DNA of 64,000 nt from assembly GCA_018812595.1 (NCBI GenBank), contig JAHJDF010000002.1, positions 1,790-65,789 on the forward strand, read 5' to 3'. The stretch comes from Gammaproteobacteria bacterium. Lineage in GTDB: Bacteria; Pseudomonadota; Gammaproteobacteria; UBA12402. Each line of letters opens with the position of its first letter. Within the stretch, counting starts at the first letter, position 1. Of this stretch, positions 2,006 through 60,608 are shown in pieces. A program made the translations under genes and the position numbers. The notes under the pieces were generated by a model that saw only the letters and a program-made list of their open reading frames with translations, was not told the DNA's origin and did not search any database.

Positions 2006-2183
2006 GCCGTCATCCCCCGCGCATTTTTCTGTCATTCCCGCGCATTTTTCTGTCATTCCCGCGAAAGCGGGGATCCAGAATTACTGGATCCCCGCTTTCG
2101 CGGGAATGACGTTGGTCTGGATTCTTAGCTTTCGCGGGAATGACGTTGGTCTGGATTCCCGCAAGAAGCTAAGAATGACGGAG
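2006..2183. repeat. Array of family-B hairpin elements (GTCATTCCCGCG...; perfect palindrome GTCATTCCCGCGAAAGCGGGGATCCAGAATTACTGGATCCCCGCTTTCGCGGGAATGAC plus 2 partial direct copies on each side)
   Basis: Direct reading: gtcattcccgcgcatttttct x2, a 59-nt perfect palindrome, then gttggtctggattc(t/c)... x2; occupies the kdsD-lptC gap where kdsC is normally found. Confidence 0.85.
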
Positions 2184-2195
2184 AAGAGTTTCCTT

Positions 2196-3167
2196 CTACA
2201 GAATTCCGGCACGTAAGAGTGTATGGATGTTGAACGCCCCGATTAACTTATTGTTCTCATCTACCACCAGCAGGCCGTTAAAGCTTCGGGTTTCCATAAG
2301 TTGTAGTGCTTCTGTCGCCAACATGCCTTTTTTTGCGGTTGTGCAATTCTTGGTCATAACCGTTTGTATGGAGGTCGTGTTGATATCTATGTTCTTATCG
2401 AACGCACGCCTCAAATCGCCGTCTGTGAAAATTCCCACGACTTCTTCGTTTTGATTCACCACAGCCGTCATGCCAAGCCCTTTCGCACTCATCTCCAACA
2501 AAGCATCTTTCACGCACGCGTCATCGTAAACTTTTGGTATTGCAATGCCGGTGAGCATGATGTCGTCGATATGGAGTAACAAACGCTTTCCGAGGGATCC
2601 TCCGGGATGGGATTTTGCAAAGTCTTCTTTGGTGAATCCTCTTGCGTGCAGAAGAGCAATTGCCAAAGCATCTCCTAAGACGAGAGCCGCTGTCGTGCTG
2701 GCTGTTGGAGCAAGATTGAGTGGGCATGCTTCTTTTGCGATGCTCGCGTCCAGATTGATGTTGGCGTGTTCTGCTAAGACGGATTTTGGATTGCCCGTGA
2801 TGCTAATGAGCTGAATGCCTAGGCGTTTGATGAAAGGCAGAAGGGTAATGATCTCTTGTGTATTACCGGTGTATGAGATTGCCAATACGAGGTCTGTTTT
2901 CAAAATCATGCCTACATCGCCGTGGCTGGCTTCTCCGGGATGTACAAAGAATGCCGGGGTGCCGGTGCTTGCAAAGGTCGCCGCGATTTTTCGTGCGATA
3001 TGGCCTGATTTGCCCATGCCGGTGACCGCTATGCGTCCTTTACATTGCAAAAGATGTTCACAAGCAAGCGCAAAAGTGTCGTCGATTCTTTGTTCTAGCT
3101 CTTGTATAGCCGCCAATTCGGCCGCTATCGCTGTTTTCCCGTATTTATGGAAGTCGTGTTTTTGCAT
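2196..3167 (-). CDS. kdsD: Arabinose-5-phosphate isomerase KdsD (SIS domain + tandem CBS)
   Basis: 323 aa; SIS motif VTGMGKSGHIARKIAATFASTGTPAFFVHPGEASHGD; C-terminal CBS pair; same strand/order as lptCAB. Confidence 0.9.
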   Translation of the reverse strand: MQKHDFHKYGKTAIAAELAAIQELEQRIDDTFALACEHLLQCKGRIAVTGMGKSGHIARKIAATFASTGTPAFFVHPGEASHGDVGMILKTDLVLAISYTGNTQEIITLLPFIKRLGIQLISITGNPKSVLAEHANINLDASIAKEACPLNLAPTASTTAALVLGDALAIALLHARGFTKEDFAKSHPGGSLGKRLLLHIDDIMLTGIAIPKVYDDACVKDALLEMSAKGLGMTAVVNQNEEVVGIFTDGDLRRAFDKNIDINTTSIQTVMTKNCTTAKKGMLATEALQLMETRSFNGLLVVDENNKLIGAFNIHTLLRAGIL

Positions 3168-3308
3168 CTGTTTTTCTTATCTCTATGGAATCAAAAGGCG
3201 CACATTATGCCTGAAAGGGGGAATGGATAGAAAATAGAAAGAAATTTTTGCAGAAGTTGTGAAGAATGCTATTTGTACAAATATTCTTAATGAATAAGAA
3301 GAAAAAAC

Positions 3309-5384
3309 ATGACCACTATTGCAGACGCAATTCGGATTGTGCGGGAAGGTTCTGATAAAGAAGTTATCGATGTTGTTATTGAAATCTCTAACGACTCTGA
3401 TTTATTACTAGATCTGTTTCAACAAGCTAAAACACTTCAAAAGAAAAGACTTCAAAATGCTCAGGTGATGCCTGATAACGCGAAAGATTTAAAAGAGTTG
3501 ATCGCTAAGCATCCTGATCAGTTGCTATGGTTTAGGGATCCGGAAGATCCTAACGGAAATCAACACCCAACAAATCAAGGAATGTGGTCTGCTGATACTT
3601 CAACGTTTGAAATAACTGAAGGACTTGTTCCTTCGGCACCGTATACAACTGCTGCTGTGTTTTCGAAATCGGCTAAAAAGGCGAAGTCCATTGGCGACAC
3701 ACACGCTGATTTTTGTAGTTCTTTTGCGCTTTTTATTCGGGCGATCAGAGATGCTCGCAAACCAGGACATATTCGCATCAATCATGGGGATGTGATCGAT
3801 CGAGGAGAGCATTCCACTGAGAACGGTGTGTTTTATTTGCTACAGATGTTGACTGATCCCGAGAACTTTCTTTGTCTTCAAGGGAATCATGAAAGTGCTT
3901 ACTACATGAGTGCACATTGGGAGACAAAGAATTGTTTTGGAGAGCAATTGAGAAAGAAATTCGATGAAGCGACGGCTAAAAAGTTATTTAATGGTTTTGG
4001 CGAACTTTATAGCCTTTTGCCCATATTTGCTTTTGGCAATGATCTGCAATTTATTGCTTCGCATGCAGGCCCACCAAGGTTGGAGGAAAAGTATGTCACT
4101 CTTTCTTTAGAAGAAATTCTTGAAGAAGGCGTTACTCCGCTTTCACTAGCTAAAAAATTTATTAGTTTAAAGAGAAAAGAAGGATGCAATGATTACTGGC
4201 TTGAAACCTGGGGAGATCCTGTTTGTGTTGAAATGGATAGTAAGGGGCAATTTGTTCGTAATGAGGCAGGGCAGATTCAGTTTTATCCGATAGATGACAA
4301 ACGTAACAAGGTTCCAGAATATGTGAAAACTTCTGGAACTTTTCCGAATGCTGCTCGTATAGGCCTGGATGTAGATCTTGATAGTCTTGGTGATGATATA
4401 CCTCAATGTTTTACTCAATTTTGTTACGAAAAATACAAAGAAGTGGTTGATGTTGAGAAAGTTGTTCATGTGCGAGGTCATTCGTTACCCCTTAGTCTAG
4501 TGCCGAATGATATTTTACCTAATTCGTTTTTGTTTCAATCAACAGGAGAAGGCGGGTTAGATGCATATGAAGATTTTAAAAAAAAGATTATTCCTACATG
4601 GGGAGAGATTGATTTAAAAACGTTATCTGTCGAGACAAAAAAGCTTTATGCAGGATGTGATCATGAAACATTAAGCGAGATAGTACTTGCTTTTGTTTAT
4701 TTTTATTTGAAGGACAAAGGAGTGCTTGCTAGACAAGAAGATGTTTTATATGACGCTGAGCAAGAAGCCGTAACTTTTTTTATTGATCAAGAGAGTGTGT
4801 ATAAATTGAGTGATCTCGAGCGTCAGCTTAAAGATATGTTGGAGTTCTATAAATATATCGTTTCGTTTCGGTACGGCAAGATGGAGTCCGTTAAAGTGTG
4901 TCAACAAGAGAAGACAAAAGAAGTTTATTACGTGCCTGTATCGATCATGATTCCAAAGAATGGAGCCTCAAGATTGGAAAATTGTGTGGATTTAGCAAAG
5001 CAATTTGTAGACAAAAATCGATCTTTTTTTGTTGAGGGAATGGAGACTAATTATTCGGTCGATAGCAAAACGACCTATGACCAAATTATTTTTTCTGTCG
5101 CTATGGGAGAAGTGTTCTCCCCTGATTTTCTGAAAAAAATACGTGATTTTGTGAAAGAATTTTCAGACATAAATTCTGTCTTTCTGGAAACGCCATGGAA
5201 TCGGGAAGAAGACGATAATTTTGACGCCTATGCACTTTTTGATGTTAATGAAAACCTCCCCATAGAAGAAACAAATGAGTGTTGCACTCTTTTTGGTGTG
5301 CCCTCTGTAGCTTGGGAAAGATTTTCTAACGGGGATACGAAGACGTTAGAGAACCGCCCAAGATTACGATTAAACTCTCATTGA
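3309..5384 (+). CDS. 691-aa hypothetical protein with PPP-family (calcineurin-like) Ser/Thr phosphatase metallophosphatase motifs near residues 129-260; remainder unrecognised
   Basis: Motifs in canonical order and spacing: GDTHAD (GDxHG-like, nt ~3693), GDVIDRG (GDxVDRG, nt ~3787), GNHE (nt ~3884), ASHAGP (HGG-like). Long ORF with ATG start preceded by A-rich region. Confidence 0.7.
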   Translation: MTTIADAIRIVREGSDKEVIDVVIEISNDSDLLLDLFQQAKTLQKKRLQNAQVMPDNAKDLKELIAKHPDQLLWFRDPEDPNGNQHPTNQGMWSADTSTFEITEGLVPSAPYTTAAVFSKSAKKAKSIGDTHADFCSSFALFIRAIRDARKPGHIRINHGDVIDRGEHSTENGVFYLLQMLTDPENFLCLQGNHESAYYMSAHWETKNCFGEQLRKKFDEATAKKLFNGFGELYSLLPIFAFGNDLQFIASHAGPPRLEEKYVTLSLEEILEEGVTPLSLAKKFISLKRKEGCNDYWLETWGDPVCVEMDSKGQFVRNEAGQIQFYPIDDKRNKVPEYVKTSGTFPNAARIGLDVDLDSLGDDIPQCFTQFCYEKYKEVVDVEKVVHVRGHSLPLSLVPNDILPNSFLFQSTGEGGLDAYEDFKKKIIPTWGEIDLKTLSVETKKLYAGCDHETLSEIVLAFVYFYLKDKGVLARQEDVLYDAEQEAVTFFIDQESVYKLSDLERQLKDMLEFYKYIVSFRYGKMESVKVCQQEKTKEVYYVPVSIMIPKNGASRLENCVDLAKQFVDKNRSFFVEGMETNYSVDSKTTYDQIIFSVAMGEVFSPDFLKKIRDFVKEFSDINSVFLETPWNREEDDNFDAYALFDVNENLPIEETNECCTLFGVPSVAWERFSNGDTKTLENRPRLRLNSH

Positions 5385-5447
5385 TCCCTTGCTTCTCTCA
5401 TCGAATCTTTATTCGGTTTTTAACTTCCATTAGACTCGCGCCCTTTC

Positions 5448-60028: not shown

Positions 60029-60041
60029 GTGGATCACATGC

Positions 60042-60073
60042 TGTAGAGACGCGATAAATCGCGTCTCTACGTT
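60042..60073. repeat. Family-A REP palindrome (TGTAGAGACGCGATAAATCGCGTCTCTACGTT)
   Basis: Direct reading; 14 nt after the family-B element. Confidence 0.8.
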
Positions 60074-60090
60074 TGAGTAGAGAAAACGAT

Positions 60091-60549
60091 ATGAATTTCA
60101 GTGATCTCACATTTATGCAACAGGCCCTTCGATTAGCGCGATTGGCTGAAGAGAAAGGCGAAGTTCCTGTTGGCGCTGTGCTTGTCTTTCAAGATGAAAT
60201 CGTTGGAGAGGGTTGGAATCAGCCGATTGGTTTGCAGGATCCAACTGCGCATGCGGAAATCATGGCGTTGCGAGACGCTTCTCAAGCGCTTTCTAATTAT
60301 CGTCTGCCGGGAACGACGTTATATGTCACATTGGAACCGTGTTTAATGTGTGTGGGCGCGATGATTCATGCGCGTATTGAGCGCTTGGTTTTTGGTGCTT
60401 ATGACGCGCGTGCTGGAGCGGTGGAGAGTGTCTTTCATGTTCTAGATGATTCGCATTTAAACCATCACATCGAGTATGAAGGCGGTGTGTTGAGTGAAAA
60501 GTGCAGTCAATTACTCAAAGATTTTTTCCAGAAAAGAAGGCAGGGATAA
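60091..60549 (+). CDS. tadA: tRNA-specific adenosine deaminase TadA
   Basis: CDA zinc motifs HAEIMALRDA and PCLMCVGAM. Confidence 0.9.
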   Translation: MNFSDLTFMQQALRLARLAEEKGEVPVGAVLVFQDEIVGEGWNQPIGLQDPTAHAEIMALRDASQALSNYRLPGTTLYVTLEPCLMCVGAMIHARIERLVFGAYDARAGAVESVFHVLDDSHLNHHIEYEGGVLSEKCSQLLKDFFQKRRQG

Positions 60550-60565
60550 CACGATTACCAAAAAC

Positions 60566-60608
60566 GTAATAACTGTATCGTCATGCCCGCGAAAGCGGGC
60601 ATCCAGAC
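60566..60608. repeat. Family-B left half element (AATAACTGTATCGTCATGCCCGCGAAAGCGGGCATCCAGACAGG)
   Basis: Direct reading after tadA stop. Confidence 0.8.

Follow-up and report, generated by a model that had tools for sequence, protein, structure and literature searches.

The window analysed here, a 64,000-nt stretch of DNA from an uncultured gammaproteobacterium, carries many copies of a short hairpin repeat, which raises the question of what these repeats are and what acts on them.

Anatomy and placement of the repeats

Taking as a full unit a 27-nt match with at most 4 substitutions, we found in the window 17 full units of the form (C/T)GTCAT-YCCCGC-NNNN-GCGGGR-AT-CCAG and about 20 partial or mosaic units, distributed over 14 intergenic spacers; the abundant hairpin family announced by the preliminary description is thus real. 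Each unit comprises a (C/T)GTC tag, an 8-bp stem (AT-YCCCGC / GCGGGR-AT), a 4-nt loop that is mostly GAAA, and a CCAG tail, and the tag and tail together give it an orientation. The core CCCGCGAAAGCGGG has 13 matches at one mismatch or less and the pattern ATYCCCGC-N4-GCGGGRAT has 16, compared with 0.01 expected in the window in either case. The loci are as follows (HH, head-to-head).

2009..2078, +: three 5' arms with a 21-nt period (2009, 2031, 2052)
2052-2078, +: full unit completed by the last arm of that array, TGTCATTCCCGCGAAAGCGGGGATCCAG
2084..2179, -: three head-to-tail units with a 34-nt period (full unit 2084-2110, C/T mosaic 2117-2144, T/C mosaic 2151-2179)
7516..7542, +: full unit with GTAG loop, mlaD-mlaC spacer
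7577..7651: HH dimer of units 7577-7603 (+) and 7616-7642 (-)
7626-7651: 26-nt stutter unit, part of the 7577..7651 locus
8669..8788, mlaB-gltX spacer: degenerate unit 8669-8695 (+) and perfect NTS 8707-8734 (-)
8720-8788, same spacer: three 23-nt stutter units (5' arm plus flank)
10235-10245, +: isolated 5'-arm-like site, downstream of gltX
10282-10309, +: C/T mosaic unit ATCATCCCCGCGAAAGCTAAGGATCCAG, downstream of gltX
11040..11099: HH dimer remnant, with internally deleted unit CGTCTTAAGGCTCCAG (+), AT-rich spacer and full unit 11073-11099 (-)
24807..24907, csrA/MFS convergent spacer: degenerate unit 24807-24832 (+), perfect NTS 24846-24873 (-) and, 35 nt away, a second (-) unit 24881-24907
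28208..28234, +: unit with degenerate tag and tail (GCCAT...GATGATG), downstream of asmA
28605..28692, +: two direct units (28605-28631, 28666-28692), downstream of a lipoprotein gene
31776..31786, -: isolated 5' arm GTTATTCCCGC, mreD-yhdP spacer
45516..45630, RND pump/membrane-fusion-protein spacer: two 20-nt stutters (45516-45555) leading into C/T mosaic unit 45542-45568 (+), full unit 45583-45609 (-) and an additional 5' arm 45619-45629 (-)
50397..50486: composite heterodimer, with leader GTAGCAACTGTATC, full unit 50411-50437 (+), (AT)n spacer, C/T mosaic unit 50452-50479 (-) and shared right end GACGGTGGA
54169..54212, +: leader and T/C mosaic unit (GTCATGCTTAGCTTCGGCGGGGGTATCCAG)
59946..60034: composite heterodimer of full unit 59960-59986 (+) and mosaic unit 60000-60027 (-)
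60566..60656: leader variant, full unit 60580-60606 (+), 21-nt spacer and degenerate unit 60628-60656 (-)

HH dimers predominate, and the 2052/2084 pair is a perfect one. The partial copies GCATTTTTCT noticed earlier are genuine and lie at 2009-2051, and the GTAG-loop variants, previously placed at 7515/7570, are found at 7516 and 7577. Pfam confirmed the gene context given in the preliminary description (mlaD/mlaC, mlaB/gltX, RND pump/membrane-fusion protein and both flanks of a lipoprotein gene), and it assigned the lipoprotein flanked by repeats on both sides to the glycine-zipper type.

All 17 full units are intergenic and no unit of any kind lies inside a gene, in a window of which intergenic DNA makes up only 9.4%. 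Occupied spacers amount to 10 of the 23 co-directional, 3 of the 6 convergent and 1 of the 8 divergent ones. The family is not a local artefact, since the 10 kb immediately beyond the window add another 15 full units, and independent assemblies of the same organism carry the same arrays.

A 61-nt start-to-start spacing, seen at 7516/7577 and in the direct pair 28605/28666, together with a unit stem (CCCCGC/GCGGGG) that we take to resemble type I-E CRISPR repeats, could suggest degenerate mini-CRISPR arrays. However, there are just two repeats per site, orientations are mixed at the other loci, the window contains no cas gene, and the arrays just outside it have a 33-nt period without spacers. 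The anatomy effectively refutes this reading, which we find barely credible.

The repeats match a published family

The published NTS consensus CGTCATTCCCGCGMAVGCGGGAATCYRG has 12 matches in the window at three mismatches or less, where chance gives zero; three copies match at 28/28 positions, among them 7616-7643 (-). The published degenerate pattern of the 'Ssn-related motifs' (SRM) likewise has 12 matches in the window, compared with 0.2 in shuffles. The dRS3 consensus is reproduced identically at 7620, 8711 and 24850. As a check on the family assignment, we looked beyond the palindrome and found that the consensus match extends into both tag and tail, each of which is conserved. The exact 20-mer, flanked by gtc...cca, is found in more than 120 stretches spanning many phyla. 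On these sequence matches, the repeats are an already published family, known as CGTC-1 REP, Neisseria dRS3/NTS, Rickettsia RPE-6 or SRM; dRS3 and RPE-6 are included in the CGTC-1 family by Di Nocera, De Gregorio & Rocco (2013, BMC Genomics, PMC3733652). The window is therefore an ordinary, repeat-rich example of a known family. The best overall explanation, to which we assign a probability of about 0.75, is that these are extragenic palindromes of the CGTC-1 type, likely sites for an Ssn nuclease, whose units turn over within arrays.

Arrays gain and lose units between strains

We compared the window with 4-6 near-identical strain contigs covering nearly all of it. All indels of at least 3 nt between these strains fall in the repeat arrays, the indel hot spots of this genome, and correspond to the gain or loss of 19-34-nt units, mostly made of the upstream flank plus the 5' arm up to the hairpin apex. 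Thus the 2009..2078 array is one 21-nt unit short in contig L131, and the 2084..2179 array has a 33-nt deletion in L132. The 26-nt unit 7626-7651, present once in the window, is found three times in L132 and four times in L121 and L131, and the 23-nt stutter of the mlaB-gltX spacer has three units in the window as against two in L121, L131 and L132. Copy-number differences between MAG assemblies could be partly assembly errors; against this, the arrays are shorter than one read and every variant occurs in at least two assemblies.

In Neisseria, dRS3 is reported to be a target for integration of the Nf/MDA filamentous prophage. The three exact dRS3 matches and the concentration of indels in the arrays would suit a similar role here as recombination or integration targets, passive recombination hot spots included. 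We nevertheless regard this as very improbable, the host not being a Neisseria and no prophage, integrase or IS110-type gene having been found beside any unit in the window.

Hairpins in DNA and in RNA

The third stem position covaries (C:G, T:A, G:C), and the 8-bp hairpin is preserved in 96% of cells. As single-stranded DNA the units fold at -9 to -10.4 kcal/mol (z about -5), and the 2052/2084 HH dimer at -38.6 kcal/mol.

The preliminary description had laid the emphasis on RNA, with GNRA-capped hairpins transcribed within the mla and RND operons and acting as REP-like protectors of mRNA 3' ends or as processing or decay punctuation. The fold is indeed stable in RNA (-13.6 to -15.8 kcal/mol), and 10 of the 14 occupied spacers separate co-directional genes, which makes transcription of the units probable; those in co-directional spacers are sense in about 10 cases and antisense in 3, and RNA roles for REPs have been proposed by Di Nocera et al. 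This emphasis is not supported, however: the only partner shown experimentally, SsnA, acts on single-stranded DNA and not on RNA or double-stranded DNA, the units have no T-tract, and only one of the eight full units in positions 1-20000 is terminator-like, on the strand antisense to the operon. Both orientations are found, as are mosaic units that cannot form the hairpin. In addition, tag and tail, which lie outside the palindrome, are conserved and the repeats are nearly identical across phyla; both point to a protein that recognises sequence in addition to shape. Such a function in RNA is unlikely; it is compatible with the CGTC-1/Ssn explanation and not exclusive of it, and mRNA stabilisation of the REP type may be a side effect at the RNA level.

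A candidate nuclease partner

According to Chenal et al. 2025 (Nat Commun, PMC11893778), SsnA, a GIY-YIG nuclease of about 94 aa, binds NTS/SRM hairpins as single-stranded DNA and cuts just upstream of the hairpin, without activity on double-stranded DNA or RNA. The determinants reported there from mutagenesis in N. meningitidis are GTC before the palindrome and C after it; in the window, GTC precedes the palindrome in 13 of the 17 units and C follows it in 16. In two stretches, L060 and L115, a GIY-YIG gene encoding 92-109 aa follows the 20-mer at a distance of 1-18 nt and in the same orientation. The window, the 10 kb upstream of it and the 2.5 kb downstream (about 77 kb of the genome) yielded no Ssn/GIY-YIG gene, so for this organism we infer Ssn targeting from the homology of the sites. 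In the published survey, ssnA was absent from 19% of the genomes in which SRM repeats number more than 200.

By this homology, the oriented strand would fold into a hairpin whenever the DNA becomes single-stranded, as may happen when DNA enters by transformation or conjugation, in intermediates of replication or repair, or in single-stranded DNA phage. A small single-domain GIY-YIG nuclease of the Ssn family, presumably encoded elsewhere in the genome, would bind the hairpin and nick about 5 nt upstream of GTCAT; single-stranded DNA carrying such sites would then be fragmented and recombination modulated.

Composite elements and the spread to new loci

The Ssn nuclease alone does not account for spread to new loci. 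In seven units the right arm, GCTAAGRAT, is unable to pair with the left, and the presence of this hairpin-dead mosaic at seven places implies copying and not independent mutation; such units are probably not Ssn substrates, yet are copied. A 70-90-nt heterodimer of one intact and one hairpin-dead unit has been copied to several loci. As previously described, two composites are nearly identical (50397-50486 and 59946-60034; 84/90, or 93%, non-hairpin parts included), and a 20-nt leader occurs four times, at 50397, 54169, 59946 and 60566, the first three being one base off the earlier positions and the last having 2 mismatches. One repeat does supply a stop codon, the leader TAG at 54170-54172 ending ORF 52556-54172.

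Copying of this kind, a RAYT encoded in the window (14245-14787) and the IS-like layout of NTS-ssnA-NTS would all fit a non-autonomous transposon (MITE or REPIN) moved by that RAYT or by an enzyme elsewhere in the genome. The claim that no transposase is associated thus fails for the window and stands for the CGTC-tagged repeats, as the RAYT is flanked by another hairpin family, tagged GTAG, and not by CGTC units. For CGTC REPs no dedicated transposase is on record, the two near-identical composites show no target-site duplication, and the 4-6 strain contigs show tandem gain and loss of units and no whole-locus insertion polymorphism, so the presence/absence sign of recent mobility did not appear. 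We consider a transposon quite unlikely. Of the earlier MITE/REP-like reading, the REP half is upheld by the palindromes, inverted dimers and intergenic arrays, and the MITE half is not, in view of the missing target-site duplications and new insertions.

Comparison with known systems

The closest likeness is with NTS/SRM as presented in Chenal 2025 (PMC11893778): the 28-nt consensus (perfect in three copies here), the tag and tail that orient the unit, the 8-bp hairpin, the intergenic clustering and the cross-phylum distribution. The differences are the host, an uncultured gammaproteobacterium with no cognate ssn in the approximately 77 kb covered, and the many stutters of 5' half-units and the lineage-specific GCTAAGRAT arm, neither of which we found in the main text of that paper.

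CGTC-1 REPs (Di Nocera 2013, PMC3733652) share the tag (CGTC or TGTC), an 8-bp stem that begins with AT, the 4-nt loop and the CCA tail, the predominance of HH dimers (tags outside), the occurrence of heterodimers, and the preference for co-directional and convergent spacers. The CGTC repeats of that survey are mostly from Alphaproteobacteria, whereas ours come from a gammaproteobacterial MAG that also has GTAG-tagged REPs and a RAYT. With dRS3/NIME the repeats have in common the palindrome ATTCCC-N8-GGGAAT, intergenic arrays and repeated GGGAATGAC half sites; here, however, the arrays are short, at most about 170 nt, without RS blocks of 50-150 bp, the host is different and no prophage association was seen in the window. 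Finally, GTAG-tagged REPIN/RAYT systems are also intergenic and of high copy number, with inverted REP doublets that can fold into a long hairpin, but the tag here is CGTC and the RAYT of the window sits among the other hairpin family; the known protein partner of CGTC repeats is a GIY-YIG nuclease and not an HUH transposase.

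The repeats form an abundant family of oriented hairpins

A strand-aware scan of the window for full units, defined as 27 nt with at most 4 substitutions, returned 17 of them (10 on the + strand, 7 on the - strand) as well as about 20 partial or mosaic units, distributed over 14 intergenic spacers. The core CCCGCGAAAGCGGG was matched 13 times at no more than 1 mismatch, against 0.01 expected, and the palindrome ATYCCCGC-N4-GCGGGRAT 16 times. The repeat family reported in the preliminary description is thus real and abundant, and since the same organism has been assembled repeatedly (GCA_018829805.1, GCA_018824895.1, GCA_043810905.1, ERZ928008 and Logan runs), the repeats are not an assembly artefact. 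Alignment of the 17 units gave the consensus (C/T)GTC-AT-YCCCGC-GAAA-GCGGGR-AT-CCAG, with the stem paired in 96% of the cells and covariation at the third position (C:G, T:A, G:C). Folded as single-stranded DNA, the 28-mers reached -9 to -10.4 kcal/mol (z -4.3 to -5.7) and the dimers -23 to -38.6 kcal/mol. All units with a GAAA loop have the apex GCGAAAGC, which Hirao and colleagues are said to have found to be an unusually stable DNA mini-hairpin; such an apex would fit a role in single-stranded DNA.

Several details of the preliminary description were recovered by the scan: copies with a GTAG loop at 7516 and 7577, partial copies at 2009-2051, and a 20-nt leader present four times, at 50397, 54169, 59946 and 60566. 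Repeats do occupy the mlaD/mlaC, mlaB/gltX and RND pump/fusion-protein spacers and both flanks of a glycine-zipper lipoprotein gene, and one of them does provide a stop codon, as the leader TAG at 54170-54172 ends ORF 52556-54172. This gene and its neighbour, 54302-55546, are paralogues of 538 and 414 aa without Pfam match, with common blocks 91-94% identical (D1, D5) and an internal repeat some 100 codons long (D7). Elsewhere in the window, a 2259-aa ORF (35617-42396) adjoining yhdP had no Pfam match at E<=0.001, and the D-Ala-D-Ala carboxypeptidase gene carries near its 5' end a 48-nt tandem duplication (19116-19211, 83% identical).

None of the 17 full units was found inside a gene, though intergenic DNA makes up 9.4% of the window; for N. 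meningitidis, 2% of the motifs are reported within genes (Chenal 2025, PMC11893778). The repeats occupied 10 of 23 co-directional spacers, 3 of 6 convergent and 1 of 8 divergent ones. About nine pairs are head-to-head (HH) dimers with the tags outside (2052/2084, 7577/7616, 8669/8707, 11040/11073, 24807/24846, 45542/45583, 50411/50452, 59960/60000 and 60580/60628), and no TT dimer was present in the window. A further 15 full units lie within the 10 kb that precede the window. On contig L131, from another strain of the same organism, this flank contains two arrays with a strict period of 33 nt, that is, a 27-nt unit and a 6-nt linker:

Arrays upstream of the window
L131 12969-13172, ~2.3 kb upstream of window position 1: head-to-tail array of five full units, closed by one inverted unit
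L131 16501-16700, ~5.8 kb upstream of window position 1: head-to-tail array of five full units (six in strain contig L132), closed by one inverted unit

The density, 17 full units over the 64 kb of the window and 15 over the adjoining 10 kb, shows that the sites can be packed very closely in an uncultured gammaproteobacterium, a host outside the groups emphasised in the main texts of Chenal 2025 and Di Nocera 2013.

The family is CGTC-1 REP, the dRS3/NTS/SRM repeat

The family is already known: it is the CGTC-1 REP, equivalent to dRS3/NTS/SRM, whose known partner is the ssDNA nuclease Ssn. The consensus of NTS (Neisseria Transformation Sequence), the hairpin target of the Neisseria nuclease SsnA, is CGTCATTCCCGCGMAVGCGGGAATCYRG, and it had 12 copies in the window at no more than 3 mismatches, where 0 were expected by chance. 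Three of them match the consensus perfectly:

Perfect NTS copies (28/28)
7616-7643, - strand: match to the NTS consensus
8707-8734, - strand: match to the NTS consensus
24846-24873, - strand: match to the NTS consensus

The degenerate pattern of the Ssn-related motif (SRM), HGTCWYN(0-2)YYVSBRHN(0-5)WNVSBRGN(0-2)RNCYNB, likewise gave 12 matches, compared with a mean of 0.2 in 100 dinucleotide shuffles. GTC before the palindrome is described as required for cutting by Ssn, and C after it for binding (PMC11893778); these determinants, mapped by mutagenesis, were kept in 13/17 and 16/17 of the window units, respectively. Di Nocera et al. (2013, PMC3733652) place Neisseria dRS3 and Rickettsia RPE-6 in the CGTC-1 REP family, which in their words "apparently lacks a dedicated transposase". 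The exact core 20-mer, sought in one genome per species, was found in at least 120 stretches; among the matches listed, the hosts include Chloroflexota, candidate phyla radiation lineages, Bacteroidota, Omnitrophota, a Rickettsia endosymbiont and all proteobacterial classes, with the flanks gtc...cca(g/t) kept in almost all core stretches and inverted pairs common. Filing the family correctly changes the tests to be made, which are those for oriented ssDNA sites of a small GIY-YIG nuclease, not for RNA hairpins or classical MITEs.

A cognate nuclease was sought in the window and its flanks

SsnA is described as a 94-aa single-domain GIY-YIG protein (cd10448) that binds the NTS hairpin solely as ssDNA, cuts a few nucleotides upstream of the hairpin on the sense strand only, is inactive on dsDNA and RNA, and reduces transformation of N. 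meningitidis by NTS-bearing DNA (PMC11893778). The same report places the motif near 71% of ssnA homologs and ssnA in 81% of the genomes that carry over 200 motifs. From its numbering, in which GTCAT begins with G26 and the base after the palindrome is C49, and from the 20-nt length of the product, we deduce that the cut falls about 5 nt before GTCAT.

No GIY-YIG gene was found by Pfam among all 49 large ORFs of the window. Jackhmmer and hmmsearch with the Ssn-like ORFs of four loci of other organisms (L060, L061, L113 and L115) found no ssn among the stop-to-stop ORFs of at least 50 aa in the window, the 10 kb upstream and the 2.5 kb downstream, and an hhalign comparison of hyp134 and hyp98, two small ORFs flanked by NTS, with an Ssn profile was negative. 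In other organisms, a single-domain GIY-YIG gene of 92-109 aa (Pfam PF01541) was present in 4 of the 120 loci listed, and at L060 and L115 the motif precedes the start codon of this gene by 1-18 nt and has the same orientation. A protein search with the Ssn profile placed 7998 of the best 8000 scored candidate clusters at E < 1e-10, meaning that the Ssn family is very large. We infer from the homology of the site that the repeats of this organism are probably targeted by an Ssn protein.

Arrays expand and contract between strains

Contigs of 4-6 near-identical strains (98.9-100% identity) covered nearly the whole window. In the orthologous sequences, all indels of at least 3 nt fell within arrays:

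Indels between strains
Window 2040: 21 nt
Window 2120: 33 nt
Window 7627: +52 or +78 nt, that is, 2 or 3 extra 26-nt units
Window 8727-8779: 23 nt
Arrays in the upstream flank: 12 nt; 19 nt; 75 nt (3 x 25); 33-nt array changes

No locus as a whole was present in one and absent from another of the 4-6 strain contigs. The comparison of strains had been proposed as a check on recent mobility; it revealed active gain and loss of tandem units in arrays and no insertion polymorphism. Since indels are present in the arrays and no whole locus was gained or lost, the arrays locally expand and contract, without evidence of recent transposition. This is the one result that goes beyond the main texts of Chenal 2025 and Di Nocera 2013.

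The variable unit is mostly half a hairpin, made of 5-14 nt of upstream flank, the 5' arm GTCATYCCCGC(G) and 0-3 nucleotides of the loop. Such half-unit stutters are in direct orientation and always adjoin a complete unit on its tag side:

Half-unit stutters
2009-2063: stutter
45516-45555: stutter
7626-7651: stutter
8720-8788: stutter
45599-45629: stutter

Other phyla show the same pattern: among 163 units in the 120 loci listed from other organisms, isolated 5' arms were found 8 times upstream (within 45 nt) and once downstream, and isolated 3' arms on neither side. Di Nocera et al. report only that dimers and singletons can recur in tandem with flanking DNA (PMC3733652); no mention of stutters was found in the main texts of Chenal 2025 and Di Nocera 2013.

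The stutter boundaries lie near the predicted nick and the hairpin apex, which invites speculation about a nick-and-flap process or slippage stalled at the apex. The 5' half-units would then be footprints of Ssn nicking: Ssn would nick upstream of the hairpin, displacement synthesis would stall at its apex, and the flap would be kept and ligated. We consider this unlikely, with roughly one chance in seven; if true, it would provide a local amplification of CGTC repeats independent of any transposase. Extra 5' arms could also pair with a single 3' arm, each adding an alternative cut site, since Ssn is reported to cut split and loop-extended sites in vitro (PMC11893778). The array dynamics and the half-unit stutter are modest leads on how the repeats multiply, a question left open in the main texts of Chenal 2025 and Di Nocera 2013.

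Composites and mosaic units

The composite form noticed at first proved to be a heterodimer, in which a short AT-rich spacer separates an intact unit from an inverted one; in the inverted unit, which cannot fold alone, the right arm GCTAAGRAT replaces GCGGGRAT. The two best composites, 50397-50486 and 59946-60034, are near-identical as first described (84/90) and agree in leader, spacer and right end, GACGGTGGA. The window contains seven mosaic units bearing this arm, five of C/T type and two of its reciprocal, T/C, and no pure hairpin with two GCTAAGRAT arms. The mosaic arm was absent from 127 loci of other organisms among the matches listed and is therefore lineage-specific; a second widespread specificity for GCTAAGRAT was rejected on the same count (0/127). 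Because the arm change is complex, the mosaic copies must come from one ancestor, implying that the dimer was copied to new loci.

A scan with the leader 20-mer found AACTGTATCGTCATGCCCGC in seven metagenome contigs of other organisms, none of the seven from this organism (0/7) and none with a GIY-YIG gene (0/7). As the leader occurs in contigs that do not align to the window, the extended-leader subfamily is common to several organisms. Five JGI metagenome contigs (L125, L127-L130) carry the leader with a ATGCCCGC-type unit (AACTGTATCGTCATGCCCGC) and do not align to the window; L125 has a similar heterodimer with a GCTAAAGAT arm.

No target-site duplication was detected around the two composites, which are 93% identical. 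A MITE, one of the natures first proposed for these elements, is expected to have terminal inverted repeats, such a duplication and insertion polymorphism; we rejected this reading, given that the composites show no target-site duplication and the strains no insertion polymorphism.

Readings as RNA hairpins or CRISPR

The preliminary description had stressed the hairpin as RNA. Folded as RNA, the units do reach -13.6 to -15.8 kcal/mol. Their known partner is an ssDNA nuclease without RNA activity (PMC11893778), and they have no T-tract; the emphasis on RNA is not supported. The intrinsic terminator was rejected, as the tail is CCAG (GACG on the other strand) instead of a T-tract. In 1-20000, one of 8 units was flagged as terminator-like, on the strand antisense to the operon, and the total of terminator-like sites was not above that of shuffles. 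At the gathering threshold, Rfam recognised only four tRNAs and assigned the repeats to no RNA family. As the units would fold stably in RNA, they could affect mRNA in the manner of REPs, outside the family's known role.

Two direct pairs of units, 7516/7577 and 28605/28666, are spaced by exactly 61 nt from start to start. This is the period of a type I-E CRISPR, and the stem CCCCGC/GCGGGG resembles I-E repeats; we judge this to be coincidence. A CRISPR array, which needs at least three regularly spaced direct repeats with unique spacers as well as cas genes, was rejected, with at most two repeats 61 nt apart and a 33-nt period in the upstream arrays, and Pfam found no cas domain in the 49 large ORFs of the window.

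The window encodes a transposase of another REP family

The early statement that no transposase is associated holds for the CGTC family, to which none is linked in the window and its flanks, and fails for the window itself, which encodes one at 14245-14787 (-). This ORF matched NCBIfam NF047646 (REP_Tyr_transpos) at E = 2e-17, below the curated cutoff (63 vs 80 bits), and E. coli TnpA-REP (PDB 4ER8) at E = 1.7e-6; it has an HLH motif and a C-terminal YNP tyrosine region, and Pfam gave no RAYT match at E<=0.001. The ORF thus encodes a REP-associated tyrosine transposase (RAYT). On both sides it is flanked by another hairpin family, (C)GTAGAGACGCGAT..ATCGCGTCTCT, the GTAG-tagged REP, and 14211-14843 as a whole is a REPtron:

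GTAG-tagged hairpins
14221-14248: hairpin GTAGAGACGCGATTTATCGCGTCTCT, flanking the RAYT
14816-14843: hairpin GTAGAGACGCGATTTATCGCGTCTCT, flanking the RAYT
30331-30369: further hairpin
51037-51075: further hairpin
60033-60071: further hairpin
60698-60736: further hairpin

Three of the four further hairpins are in or near intergenic regions with CGTC composites, and the one at 60033 is 5 nt from a composite end. The window therefore holds both REP super-families, and the transposase belongs to the GTAG-tagged one.

Comparison with known systems

The units under study differ from REPIN/RAYT systems by their CGTC tag, the RAYT being flanked by GTAG-tagged hairpins instead. They differ from Neisseria dRS3/NIME by their host, a MAG of Gammaproteobacteria/Pseudomonadota, and by their compact arrays, whereas in Neisseria RS blocks of 50-150 bp separate the dRS3 repeats. 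The dRS3 palindrome ATTCCC-N8-GGGAAT is nevertheless exact at 7620, 8711 and 24850, and in the remaining copies its third position is a paired C:G or G:C. The CGTC/TGTC tag, the 8-bp stem starting with AT, the 4-nt loop and the CCA tail are those of CGTC-1 REPs, and as in Di Nocera 2013 most units form HH dimers and co-directional and convergent spacers are favoured. With NTS/SRM, the window units share the consensus, the oriented flanks, the ssDNA hairpin fold and the scarcity in genes.
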